58,425 bases of DNA from a virus (taxonomy: Duplodnaviria > Caudoviricetes), in the IMG/VR virus record IMGVR_UViG_3300030376_003371, positions 1 through 58,425 of that record; one strand, written 5' to 3'. Positions 1-46,934 of the stretch are shown here, piece by piece; position 1 is the stretch's first letter, and each line of letters begins with the position of its first letter. The notes under the pieces are model-generated. The model searched no databases. It was not told the origin of the DNA and worked only from the letters and a program-made list of their open reading frames with translations. A program made the translations under genes and the position numbers.

Positions 1-98
1 ATAACATAGGGAGAAAAGTTAAGTATCCTTAATACATCTGCCGGAGTATCTCCTTCACCAAGCTTATCTATGTTTTTTATAAACCTATCAATCTGAAT
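1..98. repeat. Terminal overlap, identical to 58326-58423; circular assembly, unit genome ~58,325 bp
   Basis: ATAACATAGGGAGAAAAG...CTATCAATCTGAAT is identical at both ends, and an ORF reads through the join. Confidence 0.95.
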
Positions 99-6000: not shown

Positions 6001-7616
6001 GCCCATTGCTCTGTAGTAGATTGGTCTCCCAACACTTGTACCATACCTGCTCTTGTAGCGTCTAACATTCCCATTTCAGTATCAAAATAATTTGACTGTA
6101 CAGAAAATGGATTACCCGCAGGTCTTACATTACCTGTTGTTCTAAATCTATCATACGCATTTGGACCATAATACTTTATAGCTTTTTTATAGGCATCTTT
6201 AGTTCTGCTTATAGAAGACTCAACTAAATTTTCTCCATCTTCAGTTGTAAGATTACTTAAAATACTTTGAGCCTCTTTAGCATCATATTGTGATAGTGAT
6301 TTGCTTAATGCAATCTTGTCTTCTTCCGTTAGTTCGTTTTTATTAAGTAAACTTTTTATTTCATCTGACCCCTCTCCTTTTCCTATATACTGATACTTTT
6401 CAGGAGACTCTATAAACCTTCTAAGCGCATCATTAGTTATATCACTTTGAAGACTAGCTTCGTTATAACCCATCTGCATAGGATTTACTTCAACAAAAAA
6501 GTCTGTCATTACATCTACTGCTTGTGAAGCGAATGAAGAAGCTCCTTTCATCGCAGCATTCCAAAGACCACCGGACCAAGTACCTTGTGTGCTTTGCATT
6601 TGCACATATCTACCTACCTCTTGGTCAAGTAGTGCACCCTTTTCGGAAAAGGTTTTTTCTTTTTCTTGAAGCTTACTGAAAGCTCCCATCAAATCTTTTT
6701 TCTGATTAATATATGTTTGATAGGCTGCTTTTTTTTCAGGGTTACCTTTTATATCACTAGCAGAAAGACCTGCGAATTGAGCTTCATATAACTTATCAAG
6801 CTCTGCTTTGGCATTTGAAAACTCAACTACTTCTTGTCTAAAGTTTTCTGTCTGCTCATTAAAAAGTTTAACAGTAGCTTCTATTTCTTTTTCATCTCTT
6901 ATTTGCTGATTCTTCTTTTCAATTCTAGAAGTGGTTGCAGCTAGTCTATTTTCTGATTCAACTCTGTTTTTTTCCAAAAAATTTCTAAGCTTTGCAGCTT
7001 CTGCTGTTTCAGTTGCACCCATCATAGGGTCTAAGTCTATAGATATTTTTTCTCCATTTGCAGATTGAACAACCATTGCATCTCCGATACCTGTCTCTTC
7101 AAAAGTAAAACCATAATCATTGAATCTATAGTTTAAATCAGGCACAACGAACTCTTCTTCTTTGTCTATAAGTTTATTGGTAATAGTGCTTAAGCCAACA
7201 TCGAATGGGTCTTCGATTTCATCAGCTAATAGAGTTCCTGCAAAAGGGTCTTCAACTTCTTCCTCTGTAATAGATGATTCCGATGAAACATTTTCTGTCT
7301 CCGATTGTAAAGGTGATTCCAAACCTTCGGGGACTTCGGGTAGATTTGGTTGGTCCAATCCGATTGGATTTTTTTTTTCCGGGTCATCTGTCGAGACAAT
7401 CTCCGTTTCTTCTACAACATTAGTTGAATCTCCAAAGCCAACAAGGGTCTTGAACTGATTAATATCTTTCTGATAACCCTCACCTTTAGCAACATTATAC
7501 ATATTGTTAAGTGCCTCTTCATTAGACCCCATCAAAACTTTAAAGTCTTCAAAAGATTTAGAGTAGCCTTCTGCTTGTGCTAAGCTATATAATTGTTGTA
7601 CTGCCTCTTCGTTCAT
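1..7616 (-). CDS. Giant (~2600 aa) virion ejection/polyvalent protein with a zincin metallopeptidase motif; 5' part, continues across the origin to 58139
   Basis: ATG at 7616 (MNEEAVQQLYSLAQAEGY...). Open frame read by hand to base 1. HEVFH at 4593-4607 followed by EEALSELFG. Last gene of the ejection cluster. Absent from the ORF track because it runs off the edge. Confidence 0.88.
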   Translation of the reverse strand, partial: MNEEAVQQLYSLAQAEGYSKSFEDFKVLMGSNEEALNNMYNVAKGEGYQKDINQFKTLVGFGDSTNVVEETEIVSTDDPEKKNPIGLDQPNLPEVPEGLESPLQSETENVSSESSITEEEVEDPFAGTLLADEIEDPFDVGLSTITNKLIDKEEEFVVPDLNYRFNDYGFTFEETGIGDAMVVQSANGEKISIDLDPMMGATETAEAAKLRNFLEKNRVESENRLAATTSRIEKKNQQIRDEKEIEATVKLFNEQTENFRQEVVEFSNAKAELDKLYEAQFAGLSASDIKGNPEKKAAYQTYINQKKDLMGAFSKLQEKEKTFSEKGALLDQEVGRYVQMQSTQGTWSGGLWNAAMKGASSFASQAVDVMTDFFVEVNPMQMGYNEASLQSDITNDALRRFIESPEKYQYIGKGEGSDEIKSLLNKNELTEEDKIALSKSLSQYDAKEAQSILSNLTTEDGENLVESSISRTKDAYKKAIKYYGPNAYDRFRTTGNVRPAGNPFSVQSNYFDTEMGMLDATRAGMVQVLGDQSTTEQWANLQKQGFWGGAFLGLAESLPAMIGGKGIPGMIQRTAQMYALTSDHIDQEMSKDPAFDEITENEKYFVKVPVGLAVGALEAIGFRNIVQQKGLLNGVIARALGQSTEKTTAKTFQEFIRQDVKQMVARGVLTIGAGGLAEFETGFLQEGATIGIKEIFDASKGKNLFQNPDTFIDVASQMMYAGAQEAVGGFTLGVIPAVSNMAAGGKLPEVDDGVFKIFEGIMSDPQYKTMFVTKLKQEVAAGTKTQKEADAELKNFEQLEGLAPKVPTDYTTQQKKEALQLLLEKQTLESKMEGKAPELVKKEQARVNDINTALEGIQSTAETNLENQNKLEQSIPELGVQEQVDEQVQEDTDVTTEERADIEGFFGEETQTETTTQNNLFFNRKGKRGSELTPDLKSMRGMVIDIASKAANSIKTILPKTKIVLHESIDEFNKVAPEGRGFFDFDNNTIHINLEGATATTVPHEVFHAVLFNTLGETKTAEAVTKMIGSVRKTLDKNSLMANRMDAFERAYQSEGMSIANEEALSELFGMMASDYKSLTKPSKNAIVNFIKSMASKVGIDLGSQFTKTDRDIIDLLNTLARKTRTGEEIEQADIATLEELDNGTNPIGNPTTIVKPKSKGRQQKIKFKDSYPLSLVSSAKKIDIDSLIDTIADKGQKVWFWVADQLGLDAEMDIDAGPSYALQKEGEIWASSLTKKTLEKNIGKADYIFIISGSPSKSHLFNKKVYDKYTDKLGDYATFKEKALETKPVKGVRDVLTEYDSWQEIKEADGSVRKNFLIAHIAQGKTPNTAYHKLVKELDGFIDPEIFRDGFYAENNFQQNDIMMVLKPTGVKEGSNHSTYTNTILGEVVGVPDTKIDAFELMPKEMRESMEGAGRTTTSQKVAPYGSGVKEVTSRRGRQQKEITDIINESRDSNFRDEVIKDFLVRVKKYPAKLVNKIMEVDVNLFKTLPKSFTNIEGGVESGLKLYKRVKAFEQKLINSNKRKKVKLTEQQIADQTIEYLQKQPEYKNEGDGSKGLTTKQAQLQVEFQRSVGTRTSESVQEKLTEARRMLQQRKRGAVDLQSVKVAMRNFLRKSLPADLYTRSEVMKLVRQITDAGSTAQIENLFNEIIEFVNTKNNVRLEKQIDNILNGKYETKQSGRKKAAKISLNIKERIQRIAKDRLSSTATAEDIENTNKNLTEEFNQIRQKNVLSEGDMSRLVDIQILLNLNNALTMENNDVNKTGSLDVALASLTEMIEQGRSELKQQLQDKHNEYNDEASIAIEDITGEKVDMGDPDARVELDSMNQKLRNKKQKRTKNIIAKFVNTLKTNVKKFFNETEALDGLMDLISKLPGEMFGGRLQELVTARVDASTRMYKGRMMQQEEILATKLEELYGKKWRNQVRAHNKPQVAYVLDPEAVAKAKENFNNDPSLKNKQILKEVLAENEVEMSQNEMLYYYNLYKDPANRGSFKATFGKDFARIMEEMEANMDDSIKEFGDWQVNEFYPSLYSHYNNTYKALYRTNMPWNRYYSGMIYRNDPQGNPIEQQPLDLLADKSIMNTSVGTSSTKARVQNNLPIRKMNSMNVMSTYLRDMEYFAAYGETINSINKIFSNKQVRESIAAIHGDYVNRLISNMIGKIANQGIRTNSADRFVNKMNNLFIFSRIGLNPTVMIKQLTSMITYGNDIGYGNWLKYSLKSVPQMIKTVKEISKNSVYMQDRNKQSITRIIESYSNDGMIEMVPNQYWDNYVNFIMYTTKFGDKAAIYLGGMPNYLYYKDQALKQGKTEQEAQQEAIVKFERDTKRTQQSMDLQDRDFYQTAGALQRGLNMFLTTPKQYLRKEIQSTRNLYRKVKAWDRNAGKGTLGQNLRTFVTYHLVAPVLFQYVALGLPGLLRPVRDEDDDDLLRAAIIGNLNALFIVGEVISGTADLLQGKPYAGESVRSIAPLMQLQRLLKLANRAMGTKDEEKAKEAFKKFYLEVAASTSLPAIQIDRFIKNIDKLGEGDTPADVLRILNFSPYV

Positions 7617-12809: not shown

Positions 12810-15800
12810 TTATACTACACAATCGCATGTTTGAAAGGTTACACTAAAGTTTGATTGTGGTGTTGTAAAGCTTCTTAAACATTTTACCGTAACACCTGTT
12901 GGTGATAAAGTTACAGTTTGAGCAACTCCATCACAATCTGTATAGAAGAATGTTTGACTATTTACACCATCTAAGTTCTCTATGAAATAAGCATTACAAG
13001 CTGTGTTACAAGACACACCAAACAAAGTTCCTAATTTAGTTGCAGTAACAGGGTCTGTAGTTGTGTTGATAATTTCATATCTACAATTTTGGAATGAAGC
13101 ACCTGTTAGTGTTACAATATCTCCAATGTTATTACTTGCATCAAAAGCTATTATCTGTTCATCAACTGTTCCTGTACCGTCTTGTTGACATCTTCTTACT
13201 ACAAAGTTTAATTCACACCCACAACCTTGAACTGCTGTCACATTAGTTAACGCATCTAATCTGTGTGCACATATAAATATACTTTCATTATCTGTTAATG
13301 TGCCTGTTTGTAATACGTCATTGCAATCAAAGTATTCATACTCTCCACCTGTTATAGGTGCTCCTGTTAAAACGTATTGGTCACACACTTGATTACAGTT
13401 AGTAACTCCTGTAAGTATATTTCCAACAACTGCGTTTGGAGCAGCTAATGTTATAGCTGTAACCTCATAAGTACAAGAGCTACTTGCTCCTGTTGGATTA
13501 ATGAATGTACCTACGGTTACTCCCGGAGTAGGAGGTATGATTATAGTTTGAGGATTAGCTGTTGTAGCTAAAGGGTCTACACATAATTCAGCCTCTAAAT
13601 TATCCTCTTCAGGTGTTGGGTCTTCTCCACAATCACAACATGCTTCAGAACAATCTACATCTGAGTAACATAACTCAATTGGAGTAGGTCTTCTGTAATC
13701 CCAAATCAAATATAAATACTCATCATTGGTGTTCGGCATAGCAAATGTAGCATCGAACACAGGTGCTGCGCCTGTAATAGGAGCTGCTTGAGTAGACACA
13801 TTCAATAAAGTCTGTATGTTCGCAGGAGTATTAGTGTAAAGTGTTGCACTTCTGTGGAATCTAAACTGATTTAATGCTGCGTTGAAAACAAAATCATCTC
13901 CTAAAGCTGCAATTTGATTACTAATAATTCTTACGGTAGCACCGTTGGCAGGAATCAAGTTTCCACCTTGAGGTGCAGTAGTAAATGTATATTGTGAAAC
14001 TATTAATCCTGTTCCACTTAGAAATTCAACTTGTTCAGATTGCAATGCACTTGTGAATACACCATCTGTCCATCTGTATTCGTCATGAATAAATTGACCT
14101 GCTTCATTGTCAGATGTTATTGCTACTTGAATAACATTAATTAGTGGAGCATCAGGACAAGTTACTGTAATCTCTAGGTTTACAGGGTCTGAAGAAGCAC
14201 CTAAACCAAATGTAAGGAATAGCTCTTCCGCTGAAACAATTGTTTTATTAAAGGTGTGAGTGAAAAAGCCATCAGTATTAACTACTCCGCTAAACACTAC
14301 AGCTCCATTGTATACTCCTTCATATGGTATTGGTACACCTGCGTAATTTGTAACTATGAAAGAAACGTTTACAGCTCCAACTAAATTTCCAAGTTGATAT
14401 ATAAATTCTTGCTCAGGTCCATTCCATGTAATAGTTCTTGTAACACCACAATTTATTTCTAATGGCTCTGAAGGAATTAGTAAATCAGAATTTGTTAATA
14501 CATACTCATTCATGTATGGGTCATAACCACCAAGCTTAAACGTATTAAAACTATCAATAAAGTAATCTCTAAAGAAAGACCTCATTCCAAATTCCGATAC
14601 CACTTGTAATTGTTCTGACTGCGCTGAACTTCCCTTAAGTTGAAGCACAGCACCACGCTTGGCATCAGTAAAGAATTTATCAGCACCCCAAACAGCAAAG
14701 CTTTCAGGGTTATTACTATTTCCATAGTCTTCTATTCTTGCAATCTGAGTACCTAATACTTCAGGCACCGAAGCAATTGAACCTCCTCCTGTAGAATCAG
14801 AAAGCAAGTTTTTGCCTTGAAGAACATAAGATATTTTATCCTCTTGTAATGTAAGTATATCTGTCTCTCTTCCGTTAAGAACTGTTATAGGACCATAAGA
14901 GTCTTCTAAAGGTTTAAAGTTTAATAATCCTAAATTAAATTCATTAAGTTTATTTAGGTTAGTTTCATCATTAATAACACCACTATAAGTAATATCAGCA
15001 AATCTATGAGCCTCTTTATAATCTTGAGCAGAGGTACTTGTAACTCTATTTCCAAGAGTTAGTGGTTTACCGATAATAGAATCTTCTATTTTAAAACTTT
15101 CTACACCATTACCAAATGTATAACAGTTAAAGAATTCAGTATCAATAATAGCAGGTTGTGTGTCTGTTTGGTTTTGTAGGTTTCCTTGGTGAATTGCACC
15201 ACTTAATGTTACATCAGTAATAGATATATTAGCTACATTATCAGGAGGTGTAGTTGCACTTACTACTGCCGAACCACAATCTCCATACACAATTTTTGTA
15301 TCACCGGGGTCTACTGTTTCGCTAAACACTCTTCCTTCAAAAGAGTAATCAAATACTATAGGAGCAGATTCAGCTGCATCAACACTAAGTGTTATTTCAC
15401 ACTCTGCGTCAAATACTTGGTAGGTTGTAGGAGACTCGTACCATAAATCAGGTAATGCGTCTTTAGGTTCAGACTCGAATACAATCAATGTATCTCTTCT
15501 AATTATAACTACTTCTACTTCTAGCTTAGACCTTCTGTTTCTATTACTACCACACCCCTCTGTTCCTGTGAATCCTAGTCTTTGTCTTCCGGAATTATCT
15601 GTGTCAGTACCGACATAGTCCATGAACTGAATATAGTTAATACCAAATGAACAAGGAATATTTCCTATTACAAAATTACTTCCAAAGATAGGAACAAGGT
15701 CATACCCACCTAATGCAGGTAAATATTGAAATGTTGAAGGAGCATCTGAAGTATCAGTTCTACATTCTGCACTACTTGTTAATCCACCAAGACTATCTCC

Positions 15801-18314
15801 ATCCCAAAAAGCTTTTAAACTAGGGTATTCTTGAGATGCTGTTGCTTCAGCTTCCCATATACACTCTCTTAATTCACATTTATTTCCTGAGCCTCCTCGT
15901 CTTTTATTAAAATAATTTATTCTAATTGTAGAGCCTTCAGGAATTGTAAAAGGAATATATGCAAAAGTTGTAGGGTCTAAAGGGTCGTAAGTTGCAGGGT
16001 CATAATCAACATTAGGTAAAGTACAAACATCTAAGTAAACCTTTGGACAACTATTGTTATTACCTGTAGCACTATCCTTATCTTCTACCACAGGGTTTGT
16101 TCCTAGCTCAGTTGCAATTTGATTGGTTGCAACTCTCATGTAAGTTCCGGAAGGAACTACAGCTTCATTTCCTGCTGCATCTGCAGGAGGAGGGGTTATA
16201 AAGTCTGCTAGTTTAGCTTCTTTATCTAAAACTGTTACTGTAGTACATCTTTCTTTAGGACCATTAGTATCTGCTTTTACAATAAGCTTATCTCCTACTT
16301 CAATTTTTTGAGAGTTTTCCCCATCAAGTAAAAACCAAGTTGAACCTAAAGCAGCGTCTCTAAAAAACAAGTTAGTGTAAATAATATCGTAATCTTCTTT
16401 ATCCGGCTTGATGCAAAACTTATAATATTTTGCCCAATCAGGTGGAAGCTGAGTAGTAGGTATAGTAACCCGTATTGAGTTCTGACTCGTCAATGCTCCA
16501 CATGGAACATACTGTGTATTGTTTTCACTAACCAAAGCTGTAGTAGCTCTTGAGAATTCATCCATGTAGATAATTCCAATCTCATACCCTCTATTACTAT
16601 GTAAGCTTTTTGCATTGGCTATCTTAGTGTATTCAGCTTCTGATAAACTTATAGTTAAATATTCATAAGCCACATTTGCAGGGTCTAGGGTGTCTACATA
16701 TTGTAATGCAGCTATCTGTATTTTTAAAAGATTAGGTTCAGGAACCGTTACTATGATATCAAAGGGTTGATTTAACCCTGTAATACCACTTGCAGTTTTT
16801 TCATAATTTGTGTCAAGAGTTAACTGAGCCGCACAATTTAATTCATCACTAAGCGAAGAGCCATTACAAGCATCTAAAAAGACCGGCTCCAATAATTGAA
16901 TAGCATCAATAAAATCTTGGTCTTGAGCTAAATCAAAAACAGTTGCATAGTCCTCTCTTAATTGATATTGAAAGTTTAACTCTATAGCATTATTGGTTTG
17001 TGTTAATTGGTCAAAAGATGCATCAAATGAATCATGAATTAAGTCTAGCTCTATAGCAATACCTGCACCTGCTACCAAATCAACCCCTGTAAAATCTACC
17101 TCTACAACCGACTGAGGAATGTTTCTTGTTGTTCCTGATATAGTATAAACACCTGCGGAAGTTGCAGTCTCTAATACTTGATACTCAACAAACTCACTAA
17201 TAAGTTCTGTAGTATACTCGAGCTTTAGAGCAGCACCGGTATAATCTATTAAATCTCTACCCTCAAAATAATTTCCATACATTAATCGGTTACCCATTAA
17301 TGTTTGCGCCTTTGCTTTCAAAGGAACATTATCAAATAATCTTAAAACCTCTGAGTCTGCTAGTACAGTAAATATTTTACTATTACTAAAAGTATATGTA
17401 ATTTCTGTATTGTCGGGTATACCTAAGTCAGCCTTGTTCAGTTTTTCTATAACCTTAATAGTGTTTAGACTCATATCCTTAAATAATAAATCTACTCCCA
17501 CTACTAATTCACCACCACTATTATATGTTATCTCACATATGTTTGTGGTGTTTAGCATTCCTCGGTTGTTAGCTAAAGAAGAACTATAACTAAAAGGTCC
17601 CGGAATAAAAGAAGGAGGACTAAAAGGAGATGTTGCAGAGTATTCATTATCTGCGTATCTATATCTATATCCAAAGCATACAAATCTATTTTCTAAATAA
17701 TTGTTTTCACCTGCACCTTTTTTTGGTGCAATTATAGGAGAGGTATAAGGAGGTCTTTTAATAACCAAGATAGCCTCTGCAGAAAATTGGTCTATAAATG
17801 TTGCTGAAGGGTTTGGATAGTTTCTTTCTACATTTATAAATCTAGGAGGATTATTGTTGTCTGTAAAAAACAAAAGGTCGTTTACAAAATCTACTCCTAA
17901 AACTAACTCATCTGATTGAAAATTTAATGTAGTGTTTACTCCACCTCCGTCATCTAAACTTACTATATGATAAGTTAAAGTTTCGGTTTGAGTATTAAAG
18001 GAAACTATCATGTCACATTTCCCTGTGGCACCTAAACCAAAAGCAGGGTCATGTACAAACCAATACATTGTTTCTTGTTCACCTAAAGCAAATGCTCCAA
18101 TACATCTTGCTGAGGAAGATACTTCTTGTCCATTATATGATAAAGTAGTGAGTTTAATATTTCCTCTTGAGTTTTCTACCGCACCAATCTCTGATGCTTC
18201 AGTAGAACCCAAACGAACATTAACAGCATCTATATACTGACCATTAGGCAAGAGTCTTTCATCAAGACTCTTATTCATTTTACCTGCTACAAAATTTCTT
18301 TGTATGTTTGCCAT
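12810..18314 (-). CDS. Tail nozzle/stabilisation protein (1834 aa) with a Cys-rich C-terminal extension
   Basis: N-terminus MANIQRNFVAGKMNKSLDERLLPNGQYIDAVNVR; beta-propeller-like segments (LLFFTDNNNPPRFIN, NPESFAVWGADKFFTDAKRGAVL, GGYDPYMNEYVLT); follows the ring genes. Confidence 0.75.
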   Translation of the reverse strand: MANIQRNFVAGKMNKSLDERLLPNGQYIDAVNVRLGSTEASEIGAVENSRGNIKLTTLSYNGQEVSSSARCIGAFALGEQETMYWFVHDPAFGLGATGKCDMIVSFNTQTETLTYHIVSLDDGGGVNTTLNFQSDELVLGVDFVNDLLFFTDNNNPPRFINVERNYPNPSATFIDQFSAEAILVIKRPPYTSPIIAPKKGAGENNYLENRFVCFGYRYRYADNEYSATSPFSPPSFIPGPFSYSSSLANNRGMLNTTNICEITYNSGGELVVGVDLLFKDMSLNTIKVIEKLNKADLGIPDNTEITYTFSNSKIFTVLADSEVLRLFDNVPLKAKAQTLMGNRLMYGNYFEGRDLIDYTGAALKLEYTTELISEFVEYQVLETATSAGVYTISGTTRNIPQSVVEVDFTGVDLVAGAGIAIELDLIHDSFDASFDQLTQTNNAIELNFQYQLREDYATVFDLAQDQDFIDAIQLLEPVFLDACNGSSLSDELNCAAQLTLDTNYEKTASGITGLNQPFDIIVTVPEPNLLKIQIAALQYVDTLDPANVAYEYLTISLSEAEYTKIANAKSLHSNRGYEIGIIYMDEFSRATTALVSENNTQYVPCGALTSQNSIRVTIPTTQLPPDWAKYYKFCIKPDKEDYDIIYTNLFFRDAALGSTWFLLDGENSQKIEVGDKLIVKADTNGPKERCTTVTVLDKEAKLADFITPPPADAAGNEAVVPSGTYMRVATNQIATELGTNPVVEDKDSATGNNNSCPKVYLDVCTLPNVDYDPATYDPLDPTTFAYIPFTIPEGSTIRINYFNKRRGGSGNKCELRECIWEAEATASQEYPSLKAFWDGDSLGGLTSSAECRTDTSDAPSTFQYLPALGGYDLVPIFGSNFVIGNIPCSFGINYIQFMDYVGTDTDNSGRQRLGFTGTEGCGSNRNRRSKLEVEVVIIRRDTLIVFESEPKDALPDLWYESPTTYQVFDAECEITLSVDAAESAPIVFDYSFEGRVFSETVDPGDTKIVYGDCGSAVVSATTPPDNVANISITDVTLSGAIHQGNLQNQTDTQPAIIDTEFFNCYTFGNGVESFKIEDSIIGKPLTLGNRVTSTSAQDYKEAHRFADITYSGVINDETNLNKLNEFNLGLLNFKPLEDSYGPITVLNGRETDILTLQEDKISYVLQGKNLLSDSTGGGSIASVPEVLGTQIARIEDYGNSNNPESFAVWGADKFFTDAKRGAVLQLKGSSAQSEQLQVVSEFGMRSFFRDYFIDSFNTFKLGGYDPYMNEYVLTNSDLLIPSEPLEINCGVTRTITWNGPEQEFIYQLGNLVGAVNVSFIVTNYAGVPIPYEGVYNGAVVFSGVVNTDGFFTHTFNKTIVSAEELFLTFGLGASSDPVNLEITVTCPDAPLINVIQVAITSDNEAGQFIHDEYRWTDGVFTSALQSEQVEFLSGTGLIVSQYTFTTAPQGGNLIPANGATVRIISNQIAALGDDFVFNAALNQFRFHRSATLYTNTPANIQTLLNVSTQAAPITGAAPVFDATFAMPNTNDEYLYLIWDYRRPTPIELCYSDVDCSEACCDCGEDPTPEEDNLEAELCVDPLATTANPQTIIIPPTPGVTVGTFINPTGASSSCTYEVTAITLAAPNAVVGNILTGVTNCNQVCDQYVLTGAPITGGEYEYFDCNDVLQTGTLTDNESIFICAHRLDALTNVTAVQGCGCELNFVVRRCQQDGTGTVDEQIIAFDASNNIGDIVTLTGASFQNCRYEIINTTTDPVTATKLGTLFGVSCNTACNAYFIENLDGVNSQTFFYTDCDGVAQTVTLSPTGVTVKCLRSFTTPQSNFSVTFQTCDCVV

Positions 18315-40629: not shown

Positions 40630-42228
40630 TTAATTTTTCTTTCTATGCATCGTAATGATTGCATTGGTTGATAATAATGTAACTGCTACGCTAACTGCAT
40701 TTTGTAAAGCGGACCTTGTTACTTTCACCGGGTCTATAACTCCCATCTTTATTAAATCTCCCCACTCTTCATTCTTTACATCTAATCCCTCACCCCATTT
40801 TCGGTCAGGATTCTTTTCATACAAGTAAACGTCCATTCCTGCGTTACGCAGTATTTGAACTAACGGAGCTTGTAACGCATTTCCTAAAATTGCGTAAGCA
40901 ATTTTTTTTGTTGAATTTTTGTCACACTCTTTAGACTTGTCTAAATATTCCTCGCCTATTGTAAACAATGACAATCCTCCCCCGGGGAGTATGCCTTCTT
41001 CTAGAGCTGACTTAACTGCACATACTGCATCGTCAACTCTATCGTATAGTTCTTTTTGTTCGAGGTCTGTATTACCTCCAACATAGATTACTCCTATACC
41101 TCCTGTAAGGGAAGCGATTCTTTTTTCTATAAAGCTTCTCAGCTGTTTATCTTTAGCTGCACTATGTTGAACCCATAACTCTTCTACTCTTGTATCTACT
41201 GCATCTTGATTTTCTGTAGCATCATCCTTAATGATGATACTTGAGTCACGACCAACTATCACCTTGGAACAATGACCCAAGTCACCAAAGTTTATCAAGC
41301 TCAAATCATCTCCGGTTTCGCCACTAAAGTAAGTAGCTCCAACTGCAAGAGCAATGTCGTTCATAAGTTCATGTTGTCTATAACCAAAGTCAGGTGGTGC
41401 AATGTTTACAATCTTAAGACTGTTCTTCATTACATTCGCTGCCATTGTGTTAATGAATCCTTGAGAGCATGGAGCAATAATCAATAACTTCTTTTGTTCA
41501 TTGATAATTGTTTTCAATACATTCTCAATTTGTAATATACTATTTATTTCGGTATCACATACAAGCACATGCACATCCTCATGTATACATTCGTCATGCT
41601 TATGGTTATTAATAAACAAGTGTGATGTCCACCCTCTATCTATCTTAATACCCTTTGTGCTTTCGTAATACGTCTCATGGGTTTTGGATTTCTCCACAGT
41701 CACTATCCCATCTTTACCAACTTCTTTATATACATCAGCTATTTGTTTTCCAATCTTCTCATCGTTGTTGGCTGAGATAACTGCAACATCTTTTAATTTA
41801 TTACCTGCTATCTTTTTACCTTTCTTGTGAAGCTGACTAATAATAGATTGAGATTCTTCCTGTAGTATTTTTAATACCTCAGTATTGTTGGTCTCCTCAT
41901 CTATTAATTCCATACCGGCTTTGACTAAAGCTTCGGTAAGTACAATTGCTGTTGTCGTTCCATCTCCTGCTGAGGTTGCAGTCTTATCAGCTGCTTCCTT
42001 CATGATACGAACCGCTAGGTTCTCCACAGCGTCTAAAAGAAAAATAGACTTAGCCACAGTCACACCATCCTTGGTTACTGTGATTCCATGTGTATGTTCT
42101 TGAGATTCAATGAGGACTGTATTTCCTCGGGGACCCAATGTAGACTTTACTGCCTTAGCTATTTGTGTTATACCGCTAAGTAACTTTTCTCTACCATCGG
42201 AATCGAAGTGTAGTTGTTTTGGATTCAT
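40630..42228 (-). CDS. groEL: Chaperonin GroEL
   Basis: TLGPRG, TKDGVTVAK, AGDGTTTA, DRVDDAVCAVKSALEEGILPGGG, GVIDPVKV; no GGM tail. Confidence 0.97.
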   Translation of the reverse strand: MNPKQLHFDSDGREKLLSGITQIAKAVKSTLGPRGNTVLIESQEHTHGITVTKDGVTVAKSIFLLDAVENLAVRIMKEAADKTATSAGDGTTTAIVLTEALVKAGMELIDEETNNTEVLKILQEESQSIISQLHKKGKKIAGNKLKDVAVISANNDEKIGKQIADVYKEVGKDGIVTVEKSKTHETYYESTKGIKIDRGWTSHLFINNHKHDECIHEDVHVLVCDTEINSILQIENVLKTIINEQKKLLIIAPCSQGFINTMAANVMKNSLKIVNIAPPDFGYRQHELMNDIALAVGATYFSGETGDDLSLINFGDLGHCSKVIVGRDSSIIIKDDATENQDAVDTRVEELWVQHSAAKDKQLRSFIEKRIASLTGGIGVIYVGGNTDLEQKELYDRVDDAVCAVKSALEEGILPGGGLSLFTIGEEYLDKSKECDKNSTKKIAYAILGNALQAPLVQILRNAGMDVYLYEKNPDRKWGEGLDVKNEEWGDLIKMGVIDPVKVTRSALQNAVSVAVTLLSTNAIITMHRKKN

Positions 42229-42286: not shown

Positions 42287-42473
42287 TGTTGAGATGTCGA
42301 CTTTTTATCTCCCTTACTCTCTCTCTCTTATTATACACATGAATATTTTATTTCCATATACGAGGCTTTAAACTTAACATAGTTAACATTTTATAATTAA
42401 CATATTGATTATCAATTAGTTACAAAACTAAAGTCAACATAAAGTTAACATAAAGTCAACATAAGGATAACAT
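42287..42473. other. Origin-like element, copy 1 (11-bp iterons plus IHF-consensus sites)
   Basis: AAAGTCAACAT/AAAGTTAACAT/AAAGTCAACAT/AAGGATAACAT at 42430-42473; WATCARNNNNTTR on both strands at 42398-42422; core shared with 51536-51690. Confidence 0.6.
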
Positions 42474-42477
42474 ATAT

Positions 42478-42512
42478 AAAAAGAAAAGAGGCTACCAAGT
42501 GGTAACCTCTCT
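42478..42512 (-). terminator. Probable intrinsic terminator
   Basis: AGAGGTTACC-ACTT-GGTAGCCTCT followed by TTTCTTTTT on the minus strand. Confidence 0.7.
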
Positions 42513-42571
42513 TTATATGGTTAGTCAAAACACTACTAAAAACTAACCTAACACAAACTACTCGCTATAGT

Positions 42572-42772
42572 CTATCTTTTAAATAAGTCAATGTTAGCTT
42601 GGGATAACTCATTACCCTCTGCTATCATTTGAACCTTTTCATATCTTTTTGCGGAAGCTCTCATTTGAGCTAACTTAGTAATTCCCATCTCAGGTGATGG
42701 TGCCATATTAATAAGTCTTCCGTCTTTTACTTCATAACCTTGCATTGAAGGTGGAATATTAAATCGTCTCAT
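42572..42772 (-). CDS. Hypothetical protein
   Basis: 66 aa with its own TATCTTTG promoter (42795-42802) and terminator. Confidence 0.7.
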   Translation of the reverse strand: MRRFNIPPSMQGYEVKDGRLINMAPSPEMGITKLAQMRASAKRYEKVQMIAEGNELSQANIDLFKR

Positions 42773-43156
42773 AGTATTATCTTTTGTTCACCTACAAAGA
42801 TAGTAAAATTTTATTTAGATACTCAGGGCATTTGGGTTATATATAGCGACACGCAACCCGACCCCCTCAGGAAAACGATATTTTTTTTGTTTGACCTTGA
42901 CATTTTCAAAATCGCATGTCTGATTTTTTTGCCTTTTTTTTTATGGGGTACCCTACCCCCTCTGTTAGTTGTAGTATTTTCTCCCTGTATACGTTACACC
43001 ACCATTCACCCCCTGTTGACCTCTGTCCTTCCCTCCGTTAGACCTTCCCCTAACCCACGCATGAACTGAACAAAAGTTTTAAAGAAGACCTTCCCTTCGT
43101 TAGTACCTGTATGAAGTCATTTGACCTAAAACAAAACTACATAATCTCACATAATT

Positions 43157-43181
43157 TAATTCATTGATAATCAGCGAGTTA
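43157..43181. promoter_or_regulatory. Double IHF-consensus site upstream of the early promoter
   Basis: AATCAGCGAGTTA (+) and TATCAATGAATTA (-) both match WATCARNNNNTTR. Confidence 0.5.
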
Positions 43182-43287
43182 AAAAGAAAATAACAAAATA
43201 ATTAAAAAAAAGTTTGGTAGTTAAATATATTTAGACGAGATTTGTTAAAAATTTAATAATTATTTAAACATTTAAACACTTACAATT

Positions 43288-43473
43288 ATGACACATTTAA
43301 ACACAAACGCAGTAACTGATAACACAATCACAAACAAGGCACAAGAGCAATTCCTTCTTGAAGACATAGTAGAGAGAGATTTTGCTTTAGGACTGATAAC
43401 TGAAGACGAGTACGAAGTAGAGATACAGAAAATCTACTATAGCTTTGCAGATTTATACGGATTTCCTGCGTAA
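43288..43473 (+). CDS. First early gene, small acidic protein
   Basis: 61 aa; leader TAAACACTTACAATTATG. Confidence 0.75.
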   Translation: MTHLNTNAVTDNTITNKAQEQFLLEDIVERDFALGLITEDEYEVEIQKIYYSFADLYGFPA

Positions 43474-43496
43474 ATCAAACAGGGGTCTTTGACCCC

Positions 43497-43546
43497 TCTG
43501 TCCAAGGGAATGTCCCTTGCTGATGAGACGAAGAAGTCGAAACAGA
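43497..43546 (+). ncRNA. Type III hammerhead ribozyme (HH1), predicted cleavage after C43502
   Basis: UCU-GUC, stem I CAAGGG/CCCUUG, CUGAUGA, stem II GAC/GUC, GAAA, CAGA closing stem III; complete canonical core. Confidence 0.92.
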
Positions 43547-43574
43547 AAATAATATATATATAAACACTACAATT

Positions 43575-43718
43575 ATGAAATCAATTTTAAACTTTAACAT
43601 CGTTGAAAAAGCAATCATGTTCACTCTAACGTCACTTGTGGCAGTAAGTTGGACAATGTTAGTCTTCCATATGTTAACAGAAGGAATTGTTGCATCCTCA
43701 TTCGGTATTTACGGATAA
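43575..43718 (+). CDS. Small membrane peptide (47 aa) between the two hammerheads, not in the ORF track
   Basis: MKSILNFNIVEKAIMFTLTSLVAVSWTMLVFHMLTEGIVASSFGIYG; leader TAAACACTACAATTATG nearly identical to that of 43288. Confidence 0.8.
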   Translation: MKSILNFNIVEKAIMFTLTSLVAVSWTMLVFHMLTEGIVASSFGIYG

Positions 43719-43724
43719 ATCAAC

Positions 43725-43752
43725 AGAACCTGAGCAAGTTCTTAAACTGCTT
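43725..43752 (+). ncRNA. Predicted H-type pseudoknot directly 5' of HH2
   Basis: Stem 1 AGAAC/GUUCU, stem 2 GAGCA/UGCUU, linker UAAAC. Confidence 0.6.
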
Positions 43753-43801
43753 CTGTCGTAAGGTGTGTACCTTACCTGATGAAGCAAAAGCAGAAACAGA
43801 A
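43751..43801 (+). ncRNA. Type III hammerhead ribozyme (HH2, variant stem II), predicted cleavage after C43757
   Basis: UUCU-GUC, stem I GUAAGGU/ACCUUAC, CUGAUGA, A-GC-AAAA-GC-A, GAAA, CAGAA. Confidence 0.8.
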
Positions 43802-43822
43802 ACTTAAATTAAATCTTAAACA

Positions 43823-44758
43823 ATGAGTAACACAAACGCAGTCGCAAAGAAAGTAAAAGCTACACTTCTTGAAGGACTTAAAAAAGATGGCTTACAATGG
43901 TTCAAACCATGGAAATCAGGATTAAATTTTCCTATCAATAACAAATCAGGTAGAGCATACCGAGGTTTTAATACTTTCATCCTGAACGCTGAGATGAAAG
44001 AGAAAGAGTACAAGTTTAACGAATGGGATACCTTCAAGAGCATATCATCAAGAGGTGGTAAGGTCAACAAAGGTGAGAAAGGAACAGACGTTTATTTTTG
44101 GTTAATATCTTATACTGCCATGGGTGGTTCAGGTAAATGGTACAGAACCAAAGCCGAATGTATGAAGAATGAAAATTGTACTGAAGCAGATATATTTACT
44201 AATTTCAATCTGAGATTCTACAGAGTTTGGAACATCGCACAATGTGAAGGTTTGTCTCCAAGAAGAATAGAAGACGAGACGAAAGTTGTACACGAGCCAA
44301 TCGAAAGTTGCGAGAATATAGTATCTAACTATAAAAAGATAGCTAAGAAGTTGCAAATCGTTGAATTAGAGCAAGATAAAGCATACTATTCACCTTCGAA
44401 AGATAAGATAGTGATGCCACTAAGAAGTCAGTTTAGTAAATTAGATAAATTCTATCACACACTATTTCACGAAATGGTTCATTCAACAGGTCATGACTCA
44501 AGGTTAAATCGTGAAGGAGTTGCTACGGCAAATATGTTAAACAAGACCAAACATGATTATGCATTTGAAGAGTTAATTGCTGAGTCAGGTGCAATGATGT
44601 TGTCAGGTATGTCAGGAATTGAAACCAAAGACGAAGACAAGCAGAGTCAAGCGTATGTTAACGGATGGGTCAAAGCAGTAGAGAAAGCCAACGAGAAAGC
44701 AGTTGTATCTGCTCTAACGCAGTCAGCCAAGGCAGTTGACTACATCTTAGGAGAGTAA
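43823..44758 (+). CDS. ardC: ArdC-like antirestriction/ssDNA-binding protein with a zincin domain
   Basis: WFKPW...PINNKSGRAYRGFN...WDTF...GGKVNKGEKG...VWNIAQCEG; AYYSPSKDKIVMP; TLFHEMVHSTGH..RLNR; YAFEELIAE. Confidence 0.92.
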   Translation: MSNTNAVAKKVKATLLEGLKKDGLQWFKPWKSGLNFPINNKSGRAYRGFNTFILNAEMKEKEYKFNEWDTFKSISSRGGKVNKGEKGTDVYFWLISYTAMGGSGKWYRTKAECMKNENCTEADIFTNFNLRFYRVWNIAQCEGLSPRRIEDETKVVHEPIESCENIVSNYKKIAKKLQIVELEQDKAYYSPSKDKIVMPLRSQFSKLDKFYHTLFHEMVHSTGHDSRLNREGVATANMLNKTKHDYAFEELIAESGAMMLSGMSGIETKDEDKQSQAYVNGWVKAVEKANEKAVVSALTQSAKAVDYILGE

Positions 44759-44768
44759 TCTCCTTACC

Positions 44769-44813
44769 TTCAGGAATGGTTGCAAGGGGGTTCGATTCCC
44801 CCTCCTGAAACTA
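44769..44813 (+). ncRNA. Minimal tRNA mimic TL1 (acceptor stem plus T arm only)
   Basis: TTCAGGA/TCCTGAA 7-bp stem, 10-nt linker ATGGTTGCAA, GGGGG-TTCGATT-CCCCC, then A-CTA. Confidence 0.75.
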
Positions 44814-44835
44814 ATTTAATTTAATATATATAACT

Positions 44836-44949
44836 ATGAATGCAAAACGTTTAGGCAAGTTAGCCAAGAAAATTCAAAACATCATGTTGGTTGTGATACC
44901 ATCGTATTTTATAATCAGGATACTTGTATCCGTAATCTTTGGAGTATGA
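44836..44949 (+). CDS. Small membrane peptide (37 aa), not in the ORF track
   Basis: MNAKRLGKLAKKIQNIMLVVIPSYFIIRILVSVIFGV; ATGA overlap with the next gene. Confidence 0.7.
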   Translation: MNAKRLGKLAKKIQNIMLVVIPSYFIIRILVSVIFGV

Positions 44950-45173
44950 TATATATAATTAGCATGAAATCAATGTGGGGTAATTACAGGACGTTCCTAA
45001 AGGACTTCAATGATGAGCAACACATGAACAATTGGGTGAACCTTATGATTAGAAAAGGTCATAAGATTATAGGTGTACAACGTCAGTACATGAACATCGC
45101 AAAACATCGCAAGGAAATGCAGTTGGAACATAACCAAGCTAAAGCAAGGCGAATAAGAAAATATAATATATAA
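44946..45173 (+). CDS. Hypothetical early protein
   Basis: 75 aa, translationally coupled. Confidence 0.7.
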   Translation: MIYIISMKSMWGNYRTFLKDFNDEQHMNNWVNLMIRKGHKIIGVQRQYMNIAKHRKEMQLEHNQAKARRIRKYNI

Positions 45174-45193
45174 CTGCGAAAAACACAGAAAAA

Positions 45194-45225
45194 CTTGCAT
45201 ATGTCGAAATTTTGTCGTATGTTTG
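45194..45225 (+). promoter_or_regulatory. Bacteroidota sigma-A promoter
   Basis: CTTG ... TATGTTTG (45218-45225), about 18 nt before TL2. Confidence 0.7.
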
Positions 45226-45242
45226 TCGAAATTCTGATTAAA

Positions 45243-45316
45243 AGTAGGAGCATGGTGCAAGTAGAGGGAGTTGAAAACCCTTGAAAATTGAAGTTCGAAT
45301 CTTCATCCTACAACTA
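45243..45316 (+). ncRNA. Degenerate tRNA-like element TL2
   Basis: GTAGGA/TCCTAC acceptor, GCATGGTGC mini D-arm, GAGGG-AGTTGAAAA-CCCTT arm, TGAAG-TTCGAAT-CTTCA T arm, then A-A-CTA. Confidence 0.7.
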
Positions 45317-45334
45317 AGATTAAATATATATAAC

Positions 45335-45694
45335 ATGGAAAAAAAACACTACATCTTTGATTACCTCAGCACAGCTGACGGATACGAAATCGGTTGGCTA
45401 CATGAGGACACACAAAAAAATATTAGCGACCCTGATTCAGAATTATTCTATGATAAATATGGGATGATGGAGTCTGCGAAAGAGTTAGTTCTTGAGGGTC
45501 ATGAGTTTACTAACTATTGGTTAGATGAATCTGACATTGATGAATGGATTGAAGAGAGAGATAGATGCGAAACCTGTGAAGGAGAAGGCACTATCATCTG
45601 TCCAACTTATGATGACCCATACAACGAAGAACCTTGTATGGATTGTCAGGATGATGGTTCAGATTTAGCTTACGAATTATCAGTAGGCAAATAA
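45335..45694 (+). CDS. Acidic protein with a C-terminal CxxCxGxG...CxxC zinc finger
   Basis: CETCEGEG...CMDC; start moved to ATG 45335. Confidence 0.75.
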   Translation: MEKKHYIFDYLSTADGYEIGWLHEDTQKNISDPDSELFYDKYGMMESAKELVLEGHEFTNYWLDESDIDEWIEERDRCETCEGEGTIICPTYDDPYNEEPCMDCQDDGSDLAYELSVGK

Positions 45695-45709
45695 TATATA
45701 TATAATACA

Positions 45710-45802
45710 GAACAGGTGCTACCTTGGTGGTCGGAGTGGTTTGTAAGATTTGACACATACGTTAGTTTAAAAACAGAGGTTCGAATCCTCGCCTGTTCTC
45801 TA
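45710..45802 (+). ncRNA. tRNA-like element TL3 with a non-canonical interior
   Basis: GAACAGG/CCTGTTC 7-bp acceptor, GAGG-TTCGAAT-CCTC T arm, then T-CTA. Confidence 0.65.
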
Positions 45803-45821
45803 ATTTTTAAACACTACATAT

Positions 45822-46934
45822 ATGAAACAAATAGTTCACAATGATTATTCTTATTTGGATAAAATAGAATGGTCAGAAAACGTTCAGAATATGGTGGTTA
45901 GTTTCCACCATCTGACAGGAGACAGGATAGGTCAGAGAATTGATATTCCTGTTCAATTTAATCATGGCAAGATTTGGGATGCCTTAATCGAAAACAAAGT
46001 GTTTGTTGACAACGAGGAACTGAAAGCAAAAGTCCTCCACAGAACAGACCAAGCAGTTAAAAACAGAATCGCAAAGAAAGTCACGAACTACAACAATGGG
46101 GTAGATATATATAATGCCCTGACTAAACTTGAGGTAAAGGATAGACGTAAAGATAGATATACTGATGGCAGGTTTGATGGCAAGGTTGAGCCAAGCGAAA
46201 TAATAAAGACAGACTACGAGAATTATCTATCTGATATTAACTTCAGCTTCAAGATTGATTGTGAGTATGATTACGATTACAGGAGGTATGAGGGTAGATA
46301 TACATATAAGAACTCTTATGCTCATGAGTCTGTGACCTCTGAGTATTGTAATATTGAAATAAAATTTAATATTAAAAGTTCATGTGAAGGAACAGGTCTG
46401 TTTTATAAAGTGCCACACTTTACCTTAGACTTTGTTTTCACCAACAAATCGAATCAAGAAGACAAGATTGATTTGATTAGGAGTAGTGCTTTTGATAAGG
46501 TTTGGAAGAACGGAAAGCATCACACTAAAATGACATTTCAAAGCTACTACCTTCGTGACAACTCTCGTTATGTAAACCTAAATACATTTCTTGTTTACGC
46601 AAGAGAGAAATCACAAACCAATAAAGATATGTATAAGCGTGAGATAATGGAGACAACCAACAAAGACAAAGTGCAACAAGAGATTGCTGATAAGTATCCA
46701 AATGCAAATGTGTTTGTGAGAAGCTCCTACAAGAGAGACCTCACCCATCACGATGAATATTGGGGAAGGTATAGTAAGGATTGTATTTGTGTAGAGTTCA
46801 AAGACAAGAGCTATATATTATATTCAATTGCTGATGCTAAAAGAGGAGACCAAGAAATCATTGGGGTGTACGACTCAGAGTATAAAAAACCTGAGCAAGA
46901 GGAGTTAATAGAATTAATAACTAACAGAAACTAA
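45822..46934 (+). CDS. Hypothetical early protein (370 aa)
   Basis: Long ORF; leader TAAACACTACATATATG. Confidence 0.8.
   Translation: MKQIVHNDYSYLDKIEWSENVQNMVVSFHHLTGDRIGQRIDIPVQFNHGKIWDALIENKVFVDNEELKAKVLHRTDQAVKNRIAKKVTNYNNGVDIYNALTKLEVKDRRKDRYTDGRFDGKVEPSEIIKTDYENYLSDINFSFKIDCEYDYDYRRYEGRYTYKNSYAHESVTSEYCNIEIKFNIKSSCEGTGLFYKVPHFTLDFVFTNKSNQEDKIDLIRSSAFDKVWKNGKHHTKMTFQSYYLRDNSRYVNLNTFLVYAREKSQTNKDMYKREIMETTNKDKVQQEIADKYPNANVFVRSSYKRDLTHHDEYWGRYSKDCICVEFKDKSYILYSIADAKRGDQEIIGVYDSEYKKPEQEELIELITNRN

Follow-up and report, generated by a model that had tools for sequence, protein, structure and literature searches.

A hairpin and two predicted type III hammerhead ribozymes ahead of an ArdC-like anti-restriction gene in a marine phage genome: a possible arrangement for splitting early RNA

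The stretch of DNA analysed here, referred to as the window, comprises an entire viral contig (58,425 bases, 34.7% G+C). The assembly looks circular, since the first 98 bases are repeated at the end. On the minus strand, from about 42228 downwards, lie the genes of the portal, the terminase, virion proteins, a crAss muzzle-like protein and a GroEL-like protein. A non-coding stretch of about 1 kb separates this block from a plus-strand block which starts at 43288 and contains small ORFs, an ArdC-like gene and genes for a RecE-like exonuclease, a primase/helicase, a helicase, a resolvase and an HNH nuclease. We regard the plus-strand block as early from gene order and layout alone. The phage nature of the genome is supported by the portal, the terminase and the crAss muzzle-like protein. 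Based on the primase, the nearest named phages infect Flavobacterium, Polaribacter, Cellulophaga, Maribacter and Tenacibaculum, and the host is probably a flavobacterium. The DNA of the window is found again in marine metagenomes from several studies, and the carrier looks like a lytic, marine podovirus-like genome. Among the approximately 40 window proteins that were scanned there is no integrase, nor any RNA ligase, kinase or RtcB-like protein (PHROGs or Pfam). A blastn search of positions 42300-46000 against 50,697 phage records returned no match.

Several other features of the genome were noted. The first gene of the leftward block (40630-42228, minus strand) encodes the GroEL-like chaperonin (PHROG 5725, 9.6e-131). 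The divergent non-coding region (features at 42370-42480 and 42850-43060) contains iteron-like repeats (GTTAACAT and GTCAACATAA) as well as a C-rich stretch which is conserved at the DNA level, since a spurious ORF in it (MSDFF...) recurs in the related contig L001; the region may serve as an origin or in early control. An ORF of 2538 aa (3-7616, minus strand) runs across the contig junction and is part of a structural block, together with the 1834-aa crAss muzzle-like protein (12810-18314). It has no PHROG, Pfam or PDB sequence match, and its product is a candidate virion-packaged enzyme, e.g. an RNA polymerase.

The order of the features at the start of the plus-strand block is gene 1, a hairpin, a first hammerhead (HH1), a leader, gene 2, a second hammerhead (HH2), a second leader of 21 nt and gene 3, the ArdC-like gene (Table 1). 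Concerning gene 1, no Pfam or PHROG match is found. Homologues occupy the same place in L001-L004, L007 and L131 (44-49% identity) and in L005 (29%), and the residues E25, E29, G35, I37, E41 and Y42 are invariant across them; read from its sequence, gene 1 is a real, conserved small protein. Gene 2 has no family match in Pfam or PHROG and is missing from this position in the relatives. Gene 3 contains the domains PF08401 (ArdcN, 1.6e-20) and PF18818 (zincin-like peptidase, 2.2e-27) and matches PHROG 7245, 'anti-restriction protein' (1.3e-58). No terminator-like sites are found on the plus strand between 42200 and 48500. The scan for sigma-70 promoters gave 37 sites against 25.9 expected, and the scan for Bacteroidota-type promoters (TTTG/TAnnTTTG) placed no site ahead of gene 1. 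As these scans located neither a promoter nor a terminator, co-transcription of the three genes is assumed. No RNA run is listed as containing positions 43100-45100, and the contigs of four runs that align there are short pieces of relatives, none of which spans or ends at one of the predicted cut sites; RNA ends would in any case not show in contigs. Concerning tRNA genes as alternative processing signals, none is present in the window; one tRNA-Met is found in the relative L002.

Table 1. Positions of the genes and RNA features at the start of the plus-strand block
Feature	Position	Strand	Description
Gene 1	43288..43473	+	61-aa acidic protein; first ORF of the rightward block; stop codon 43471-43473
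Hairpin 1	43481..43497	+	(A)GGGGUC-UUU-GACCCC(U); 6-7-bp GC hairpin
HH1	43497..43546	+	Type III hammerhead; predicted cut C43502/C43503
Leader 1	43547..43574	+	A/U-rich, 28 nt; HH1 end to gene 2 start codon
Gene 2	43575..43718	+	47-aa hydrophobic peptide between HH1 and HH2
Weak hairpin	43725..43742	+	AGAAC/GUUCU, upstream of HH2
HH2	43751..43801	+	Type III hammerhead variant; predicted cut after C43757
Gene 3	43823..44758	+	ArdC-like anti-restriction protein, 311 aa; start codon 22 nt after HH2

HH1 begins with the 5' strand of stem III and the cut site, UCUGUC^ (43497-43502), followed by stem I, CAAGGG(A)-AUG-(U)CCCUUG (43503-43519), the core CUGAUGA (43520-43526), stem II, GAC/GUC with the loop GAAGAA (43527-43538), the core GAA (43539-43541) and the 3' strand of stem III, ACAGA (43542-43546). 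Stems I, II and III have 7, 3 and 5 bp, respectively; stem III is open and the other two are closed by loops. The key positions A15.1-U16.1 (A43542-U43501), G10.1-C11.1 (G43527-C43538) and C17 (C43502) are all present. The loops (loop 1 AAUGU, loop 2 GAAGAA) are of a rarer form, which HH1 has in common with the copies in L130, L003 and L007. In type III hammerheads, fast cleavage at cellular Mg2+ depends on a tertiary contact between loops 1 and 2.

A strict descriptor (stem I at least 6, stem II at least 3 and stem III at least 5 bp) has one match in the window and none in 300 first-order Markov random genomes. Model R1 was built without the window, from 50 type III hammerheads of other viral contigs in IMG/VR; it scores HH1 at 48.1 bits (E 2.5e-10). 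Apart from HH1 and HH2, no match in the 58-kb genome exceeds 8.4 bits. The Rfam search of the whole window returned nothing at the gathering score and no hammerhead among its 13 matches at E<=10; in a search limited to 391 nt, HH1 matches RF00008 with 35.3 bits (E 4.6e-06), below the gathering cut-off of 48.5, which is a curation threshold and not a biochemical definition. The minimum-energy fold (MFE) of HH1 does not draw stem III, and the active fold including the hairpin (-24.8 kcal/mol) lies only 1.2 kcal/mol above it (-26.0 kcal/mol). A first-pass annotation had described a canonical type III hammerhead at these positions, with a cut after C43502. The core, the three stems, the coordinates and the position of the cut site are as it gave them, and the assignment is borne out by the R1 score, by the empty random genomes and by the retention of the motif in relatives with compensatory changes (see below). 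That annotation also placed the motif directly after the first early gene; the motif does begin 24 nt past the stop codon of the conserved gene 1, and the word 'early' is taken from gene order. It had missed both the hairpin in front of HH1 and HH2, 255 nt further downstream. Self-cleavage of HH1 is predicted with high confidence.

HH2 consists of UUCUGUC^, stem I (GUAAGG/CCUUAC, loop UGUGUA), CUGAUGA, stem II (A-GC-AAAA-GC-A) and then GAAACAGAA. The core elements are CUGAUGA at 43776-82, GAA at 43793-95, the pair A43796-U43756 and C43757, and the three stems have 7, 2 (past a mismatch) and 6 bp. The strands of stem III are identical in the two hammerheads (UCUGUC ... GAAACAGA). R1 gives HH2 57.0 bits (E 1.2e-12, match 43752-43800), and its loops fit the invariant or nearly invariant loop letters of the 50-sequence seed alignment described below; Rfam does not list it at E<=10 in the 391-nt search. 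The G10.1-C11.1 pair is replaced by A.A (A43783, A43792). The active fold has -12.4 kcal/mol vs -19.9 kcal/mol for the MFE, i.e. the competing fold is 7.5 kcal/mol more stable; in this inactive fold CUGCUU (43746-43751) pairs with AAGCAG (43789-43794), and GCUUC with GAAGC. HH2 may be slow or inactive, because it lacks G10.1-C11.1, has a stem II of 2 bp and has a more stable competing fold; cleavage is nevertheless the likelier prediction. Another copy of the A.A type, in L108, was checked by eye and lacks the complement that forms the inactive fold of HH2. Both hammerheads of the window have the features of RF00008 (Hammerhead_3), i.e. three stems around CUGAUGA, GAA and A15.1-U16.1, a GUC triplet and an open stem III; they differ from the family in being very compact, in the score of HH1 below the cut-off, and in the A.A form and the absence from the matches of HH2.

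Hairpin 1 begins 8 nt past the gene 1 stop codon and directly adjoins stem III of HH1; U43497 can pair in either helix. The 40 nt just ahead of HH1 fold at -10.1 kcal/mol. Its orthologues carry compensatory changes: GGGGAC/GUCCCC in L001, GGGGGC/GCCCCC in L002 and GGGAGC/GCUCCC in L004. HH2 is without a strong hairpin, the 40 nt upstream of it folding at only -3.5 kcal/mol. On the minus strand, hairpin 1 (43481-43497) followed by GTTTGATTTA has a terminator-like score; the set-wide hairpins presented below favour the sense strand.

Nine viral contigs encode relatives of the ArdC-like protein (39-78% identity). A hammerhead lies directly before ardC in six of the nine loci, of type III in L001-L004 and L007 and of type I in L009. 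The five type III loci have the order gene 1, hairpin, single type III hammerhead, ardC; compared with them, gene 2 together with one hammerhead is an insertion peculiar to the window. In L005 a type III hammerhead is found just after ardC, ahead of a gene 1-like ORF. No hammerhead is found at ardC in L008 or in L006, which has only 560 nt of upstream DNA. The stem I of the orthologues changes in sequence and keeps its pairing: CAAGGG/CCCUUG in the window, GAGAGA/UCUCUC in L001, CACAGG/CCUGUG in L003 and AGGUAG/CUGCCU in L004. Against RF00008 the HH1 orthologue in L001, the closest relative, scores 48.5, exactly the cut-off, and those in L003 and L007 score 39.5 and 37.4. The closest copy of HH1 among the matches listed is that of L130, which sits between other, unrelated genes; there A-U replaces G-C in stem I, and C-G replaces A-U in stem II. 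Each of five nearly complete relatives has one to three copies of type III. Four of them were found through ArdC and have these copies in the ardC locus; the fifth (L037) was found through the hammerhead pattern. No other ribozyme class is found in L001-L009 at E<=0.01.

Two further observations concern the same early region of the relatives. Type I hammerheads (stem I open) occur at L003:4624-4681, L003:6282-6344 and L009:2922-2972; since the last of these sits in the place before ArdC, different topologies fill one slot. L008, without a hammerhead before its ArdC homologue, has at 845-880 a T-arm-like GGTTCGAATCC stem-loop with a 5-bp outer closing helix and, after it, a second hairpin. No tRNA is called there by ARAGORN, and the stem-loop could be a tRNA-like processing signal.

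A scan of IMG/VR with the pattern CTGTC...CTGATGA...GAAACAG gave at least 118 stretches; those listed contain 132 pattern matches, of which 86 have both stems. With a looser descriptor, applied to all gathered loci and the window, at least 120 distinct type III hammerheads were obtained from 79 sources, with one to five per locus. The seed alignment comprises 50 hammerheads of standard size among the matches listed. All three stems covary, with a covariation score of 0.797 (0.219 in shuffles and at most 0.148 with the partners slid), and 95.3% of the cells are paired, a share that is partly by construction because the 50 were chosen with a stem filter, which does not apply to the variety of pair types. 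HH1 and HH2 belong to a viral-metagenome group in which stem I (6-7 bp) carries the loop UGUGUR and stem II (3-4 bp) an A-rich loop. The first U and the second G in loop 1, like the A's in loop 2, are invariant or nearly so across the seed alignment. Positions 10.1/11.1 are G-C in 58 of the 120 listed, G-C after a 1-nt insert in 30, U.U in 26 and A.A in 6. The commonest stem III among the matches listed is UCUGU/ACAGA.

The hairpin was not used in selecting the 120 hammerheads. Looking at the 120 listed, the 40 nt upstream fold at a mean of -13.0 kcal/mol, vs -2.9 for the 40 nt downstream, -4.7 for random windows and -5.9 for shuffles. A fold at or below -10 kcal/mol is found upstream in 86/120 of those listed, downstream in 2/119, in random windows of the same locus in 28/360 and in shuffles in 50/360; such hairpin counts are of copies and not of independent events, because one sequence pattern gathered the loci and the contigs are related. 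With one hammerhead taken per locus, a strong upstream hairpin is present in 52/79 among the matches listed, and the hairpin is flush with stem III (zero gap) in 54/92. The hairpin is linked to gene ends: among the matches listed it is strong in 74/88 hammerheads with the end of a same-strand ORF at most 60 nt upstream vs 12/32 of the others (odds ratio 8.8, Fisher 1.7e-6). Hairpin stability is higher on the hammerhead strand than on the reverse complement in 79/120 and lower in 37/120 (Wilcoxon 9e-9, matches listed), and 62 of the 86 strong hairpins listed contain G.U pairs. The spacing is tight: among the matches listed, the hammerhead follows the stop codon at a median of 35 nt and precedes the next start codon at a median of 29 nt (quartiles 21/29/76); ORFs of less than 40 aa were ignored. 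Concerning the folding of the ribozymes, the MFE sequesters the 5' strand of stem III in 36/120 among the matches listed. A switch coupled to translation was considered as well, in which an upstream ACAG mimics the 3' strand of stem III; this ACAG occurs in 0/72 and 2/15 flanks by a crude motif test, which is flawed in that the G falls inside the hairpin.

Some regularities were seen within the wider set besides the hairpin. In 38 listed hammerheads that were not selected by CTGTC, U10.1.U11.1 goes together with the cleavage triplet GUA in 20/23, and GUA is found in 1/15 of the others (Fisher 9e-7). This coupling is seen in L011, L031, L053, L059, L061, L066, L072, L084, L086, L099, L108, L112, L114, L115 and others, and may be either a structural tie of position 17 to 10.1/11.1 or one inherited subfamily. 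A hairpin core GTGTC-N6-GACAC stands before several hammerheads per genome in L010, L017, L037, L061, L062, L064, L084, L115, L117 and L127, a hint that its sequence is specifically recognised or that the module has been copied within genomes. A cultured Flavobacterium phage, vB_FspP_elemoE_10-3D, also has a type III hammerhead (L137:1915-1967, i.e. MT497078.1 28914-28966, minus strand; GUA triplet, R1 39.4 bits). A leftward block of genes begins 16 nt beyond it, and TATATTTG boxes precede it by about 190 nt; no gene is annotated upstream, and inspection by eye shows no strong hairpin.

Hammerheads in such positions have been described before. The passages of Perreault et al. (2011, PMC3088659) on which we draw report multiple hammerheads flanking single genes or short blocks in prophages, with flanked genes that vary, and three tandem prophage sets that cleaved during in vitro transcription. 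A trio in A. tumefaciens flanks ardA and cleaves in E. coli too, and in three Legionella strains ardA directly follows a hammerhead (PMC3088659). The same passages give the U10.1-U11.1 mismatch form as active and propose that long phage transcripts are processed into single-gene mRNAs; for the A.A form our literature searches found no activity data. In D. vulgaris three type II hammerheads near phage genes are active (PMC8782182). According to the parts of a 2019 review cited here (PMC6765202), which repeats the processing idea, the roles of bacterial ribozymes are still largely elusive. HH1 and HH2, intergenic on the plus strand and flanking gene 2, match this clustered layout, with close-set hammerheads around one gene and one of them directly before an anti-restriction gene; the clusters of the 2011 passages concern ArdA and prophages, whereas here the gene is ArdC-like and the carrier a lytic-looking marine podovirus-like genome. 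As far as those passages go, the locus is a further example of the arrangement described in 2011. The context, which the first-pass annotation had called unusually clear, is indeed clear but not new, both the arrangement and the processing idea being in PMC3088659. The upstream hairpin and its link to gene ends, which are found in the window and the IMG/VR set, have no mention in the main-text passages of PMC3088659. Literature searches at the level of main texts gave no report of a hairpin adjoining phage hammerheads, and none pairing hammerheads with ArdC. The module of hairpin and hammerhead and its tie to gene ends may be the new part, and the statistics above support it.

The explanation we favour, and hold to be somewhat better than an even proposition, is that co-transcriptional self-cleavage splits an early polycistronic RNA, leaving a hairpin-protected 3' end upstream and a folded 5'-OH leader downstream. 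HH1 and HH2 would lie in one rightward polycistronic transcript, and each would fold as the RNA polymerase passes and cut after C43502 and C43757, respectively. The products would be the gene 1 message, a gene 2 message of 255 nt and the ardC message, and transcription would not be stopped. The upstream product at HH1 would end in the GC hairpin and a 5-nt tail with a 2',3'-cyclic phosphate; because this end is much like a terminator hairpin, the product should resist 3' exonucleases. The short stem III would let the cleavage products part. The downstream product would carry a 5'-OH and the folded ribozyme body, then a short unstructured A/U-rich leader and the start codon. The stability and translation of each gene would in this way be uncoupled from those of its neighbours. 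Both the link to gene ends and the bias towards the sense strand are in keeping with a hairpin that protects the upstream message at its 3' end.

Two known systems offer a comparison. The early transcript of phage T7 is cut between genes by RNase III, its upstream products end in a stabilising hairpin, and its first messages include the anti-restriction gene 0.3/ocr. The two cases are alike in that a polycistronic early RNA is (here, would be) cut between genes into upstream products with a hairpin end; in T7 a host enzyme cuts inside the hairpin, whereas the cut predicted here is a self-cut beside the hairpin, which would leave a 2',3'-cyclic phosphate and a 5'-OH and need no host factor. RiboJ is a synthetic insulator made of a hammerhead plus a hairpin. 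There too a hammerhead in the 5' leader cuts off the upstream context, so that a defined 5' end stands ahead of the start codon, but the extra hairpin of RiboJ is downstream of the ribozyme, whereas that of the window is upstream and would stay with the upstream product. We tentatively extend the proposal, at less than even confidence, to a distinct and widespread phage module of hairpin and type III hammerhead, a 'processing terminator' which would give a terminator-like, hairpin-capped 3' end while the polymerase continues. It would be a host-independent counterpart of the T7 RNase III sites and, in this phage group, would release the anti-restriction message at the very start of infection.

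The comparison with RiboJ leads to the first of the other explanations, in which the hammerheads trim the leader of the downstream gene, giving ardC and gene 2 a fixed, folded 5' end and a start region free of context, and the hairpin only guards the folding of the ribozyme against upstream RNA. The tight distance from hammerhead to start codon (21/29/76 nt, matches listed) with its unstructured leader is in agreement with it, as are the hammerhead of vB_FspP_elemoE_10-3D, close before the first gene of its block and without an annotated upstream gene, and the ardA genes directly after hammerheads in Legionella (passages of PMC3088659). A pure folding aid, however, would not be expected to track upstream gene ends, which the hairpin does (74/88 vs 12/32 of those listed). 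Trimming also overlaps with the splitting of the RNA and does not exclude it; as an account of its own we consider it unlikely.

A 5'-OH end may destabilise RNA rather than protect it in hosts with RNase J-type enzymes, as the glmS literature has it. Cleavage could accordingly lower expression, the 5'-OH product undergoing 5'-end-dependent decay and gene 2 and ardC being expressed at a low level or briefly compared with gene 1. There is a precedent in glmS, the only bacterial ribozyme that is well understood, where cleavage switches the gene off (as outlined in PMC6765202). Yet the phage needs an anti-restriction protein immediately and in large amounts, the locus has no ligand-sensing element, and the ribozyme body would shield the 5' end, so we rate this explanation as improbable.

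We give slightly less credence still to the idea that the hammerheads mark the borders of mobile cassettes, as by-products of exchange or as selfish elements with little effect on expression. It would account for the insertion of gene 2 with one hammerhead relative to five relatives, for the near copy of HH1 between unrelated genes in L130 and for the variety of flanked genes among prophages (PMC3088659, in part). What argues against it is that the stems keep pairing through compensatory changes, which indicates selection on the RNA fold, and that a hammerhead stands before ardC in loci whose ArdC shares 45-78% identity with that of the window.

The identical stem III strands of HH1 and HH2, and the ligatable ends which the products would carry, also bring to mind a double cleavage that frees the 255-nt gene 2 RNA for circularisation, or a splicing of gene 1 to ardC through stem III, an idea raised by Perreault et al. 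(PMC3088659); this is very improbable, as those passages state that spliced and circular products were looked for and neither was detected, pairs within a locus share the inner stem III in 31/58 vs 68% of random pairs (matches listed), i.e. with no enrichment, and the shared form is simply the commonest one among the matches listed. Just as improbable is a hairpin that acts as a DNA-level or protein-binding signal (the hairpin promoter of a virion RNA polymerase, or an antisense terminator) and not as a 3'-end protector: one contig group does keep GTGTC-N6-GACAC, hairpin 1 is terminator-like on the minus strand and the genome encodes the 2538-aa protein without assignment beside the crAss muzzle-like protein, but the hairpins are more stable as sense-strand RNA, 62/86 of the strong ones listed have G.U pairs and, because stem III covaries, transcripts must start upstream of it.

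Thousands of hammerheads are found in bacteria and phages, and their function is largely elusive (PMC6765202, as far as cited here). The locus is a compact and complete example, with gene, hairpin, ribozyme, gene, ribozyme and anti-restriction gene in a row. The strong sense-strand hairpin upstream of the ribozyme, mostly at gene ends, is a measurable rule among the 120 hammerheads listed and makes the processing idea concrete. The cultured Flavobacterium phage with a related hammerhead (MT497078.1) is a possible laboratory system, and the unit of hairpin and ribozyme could serve as a natural insulator part in organisms without translation led by Shine-Dalgarno sequences.
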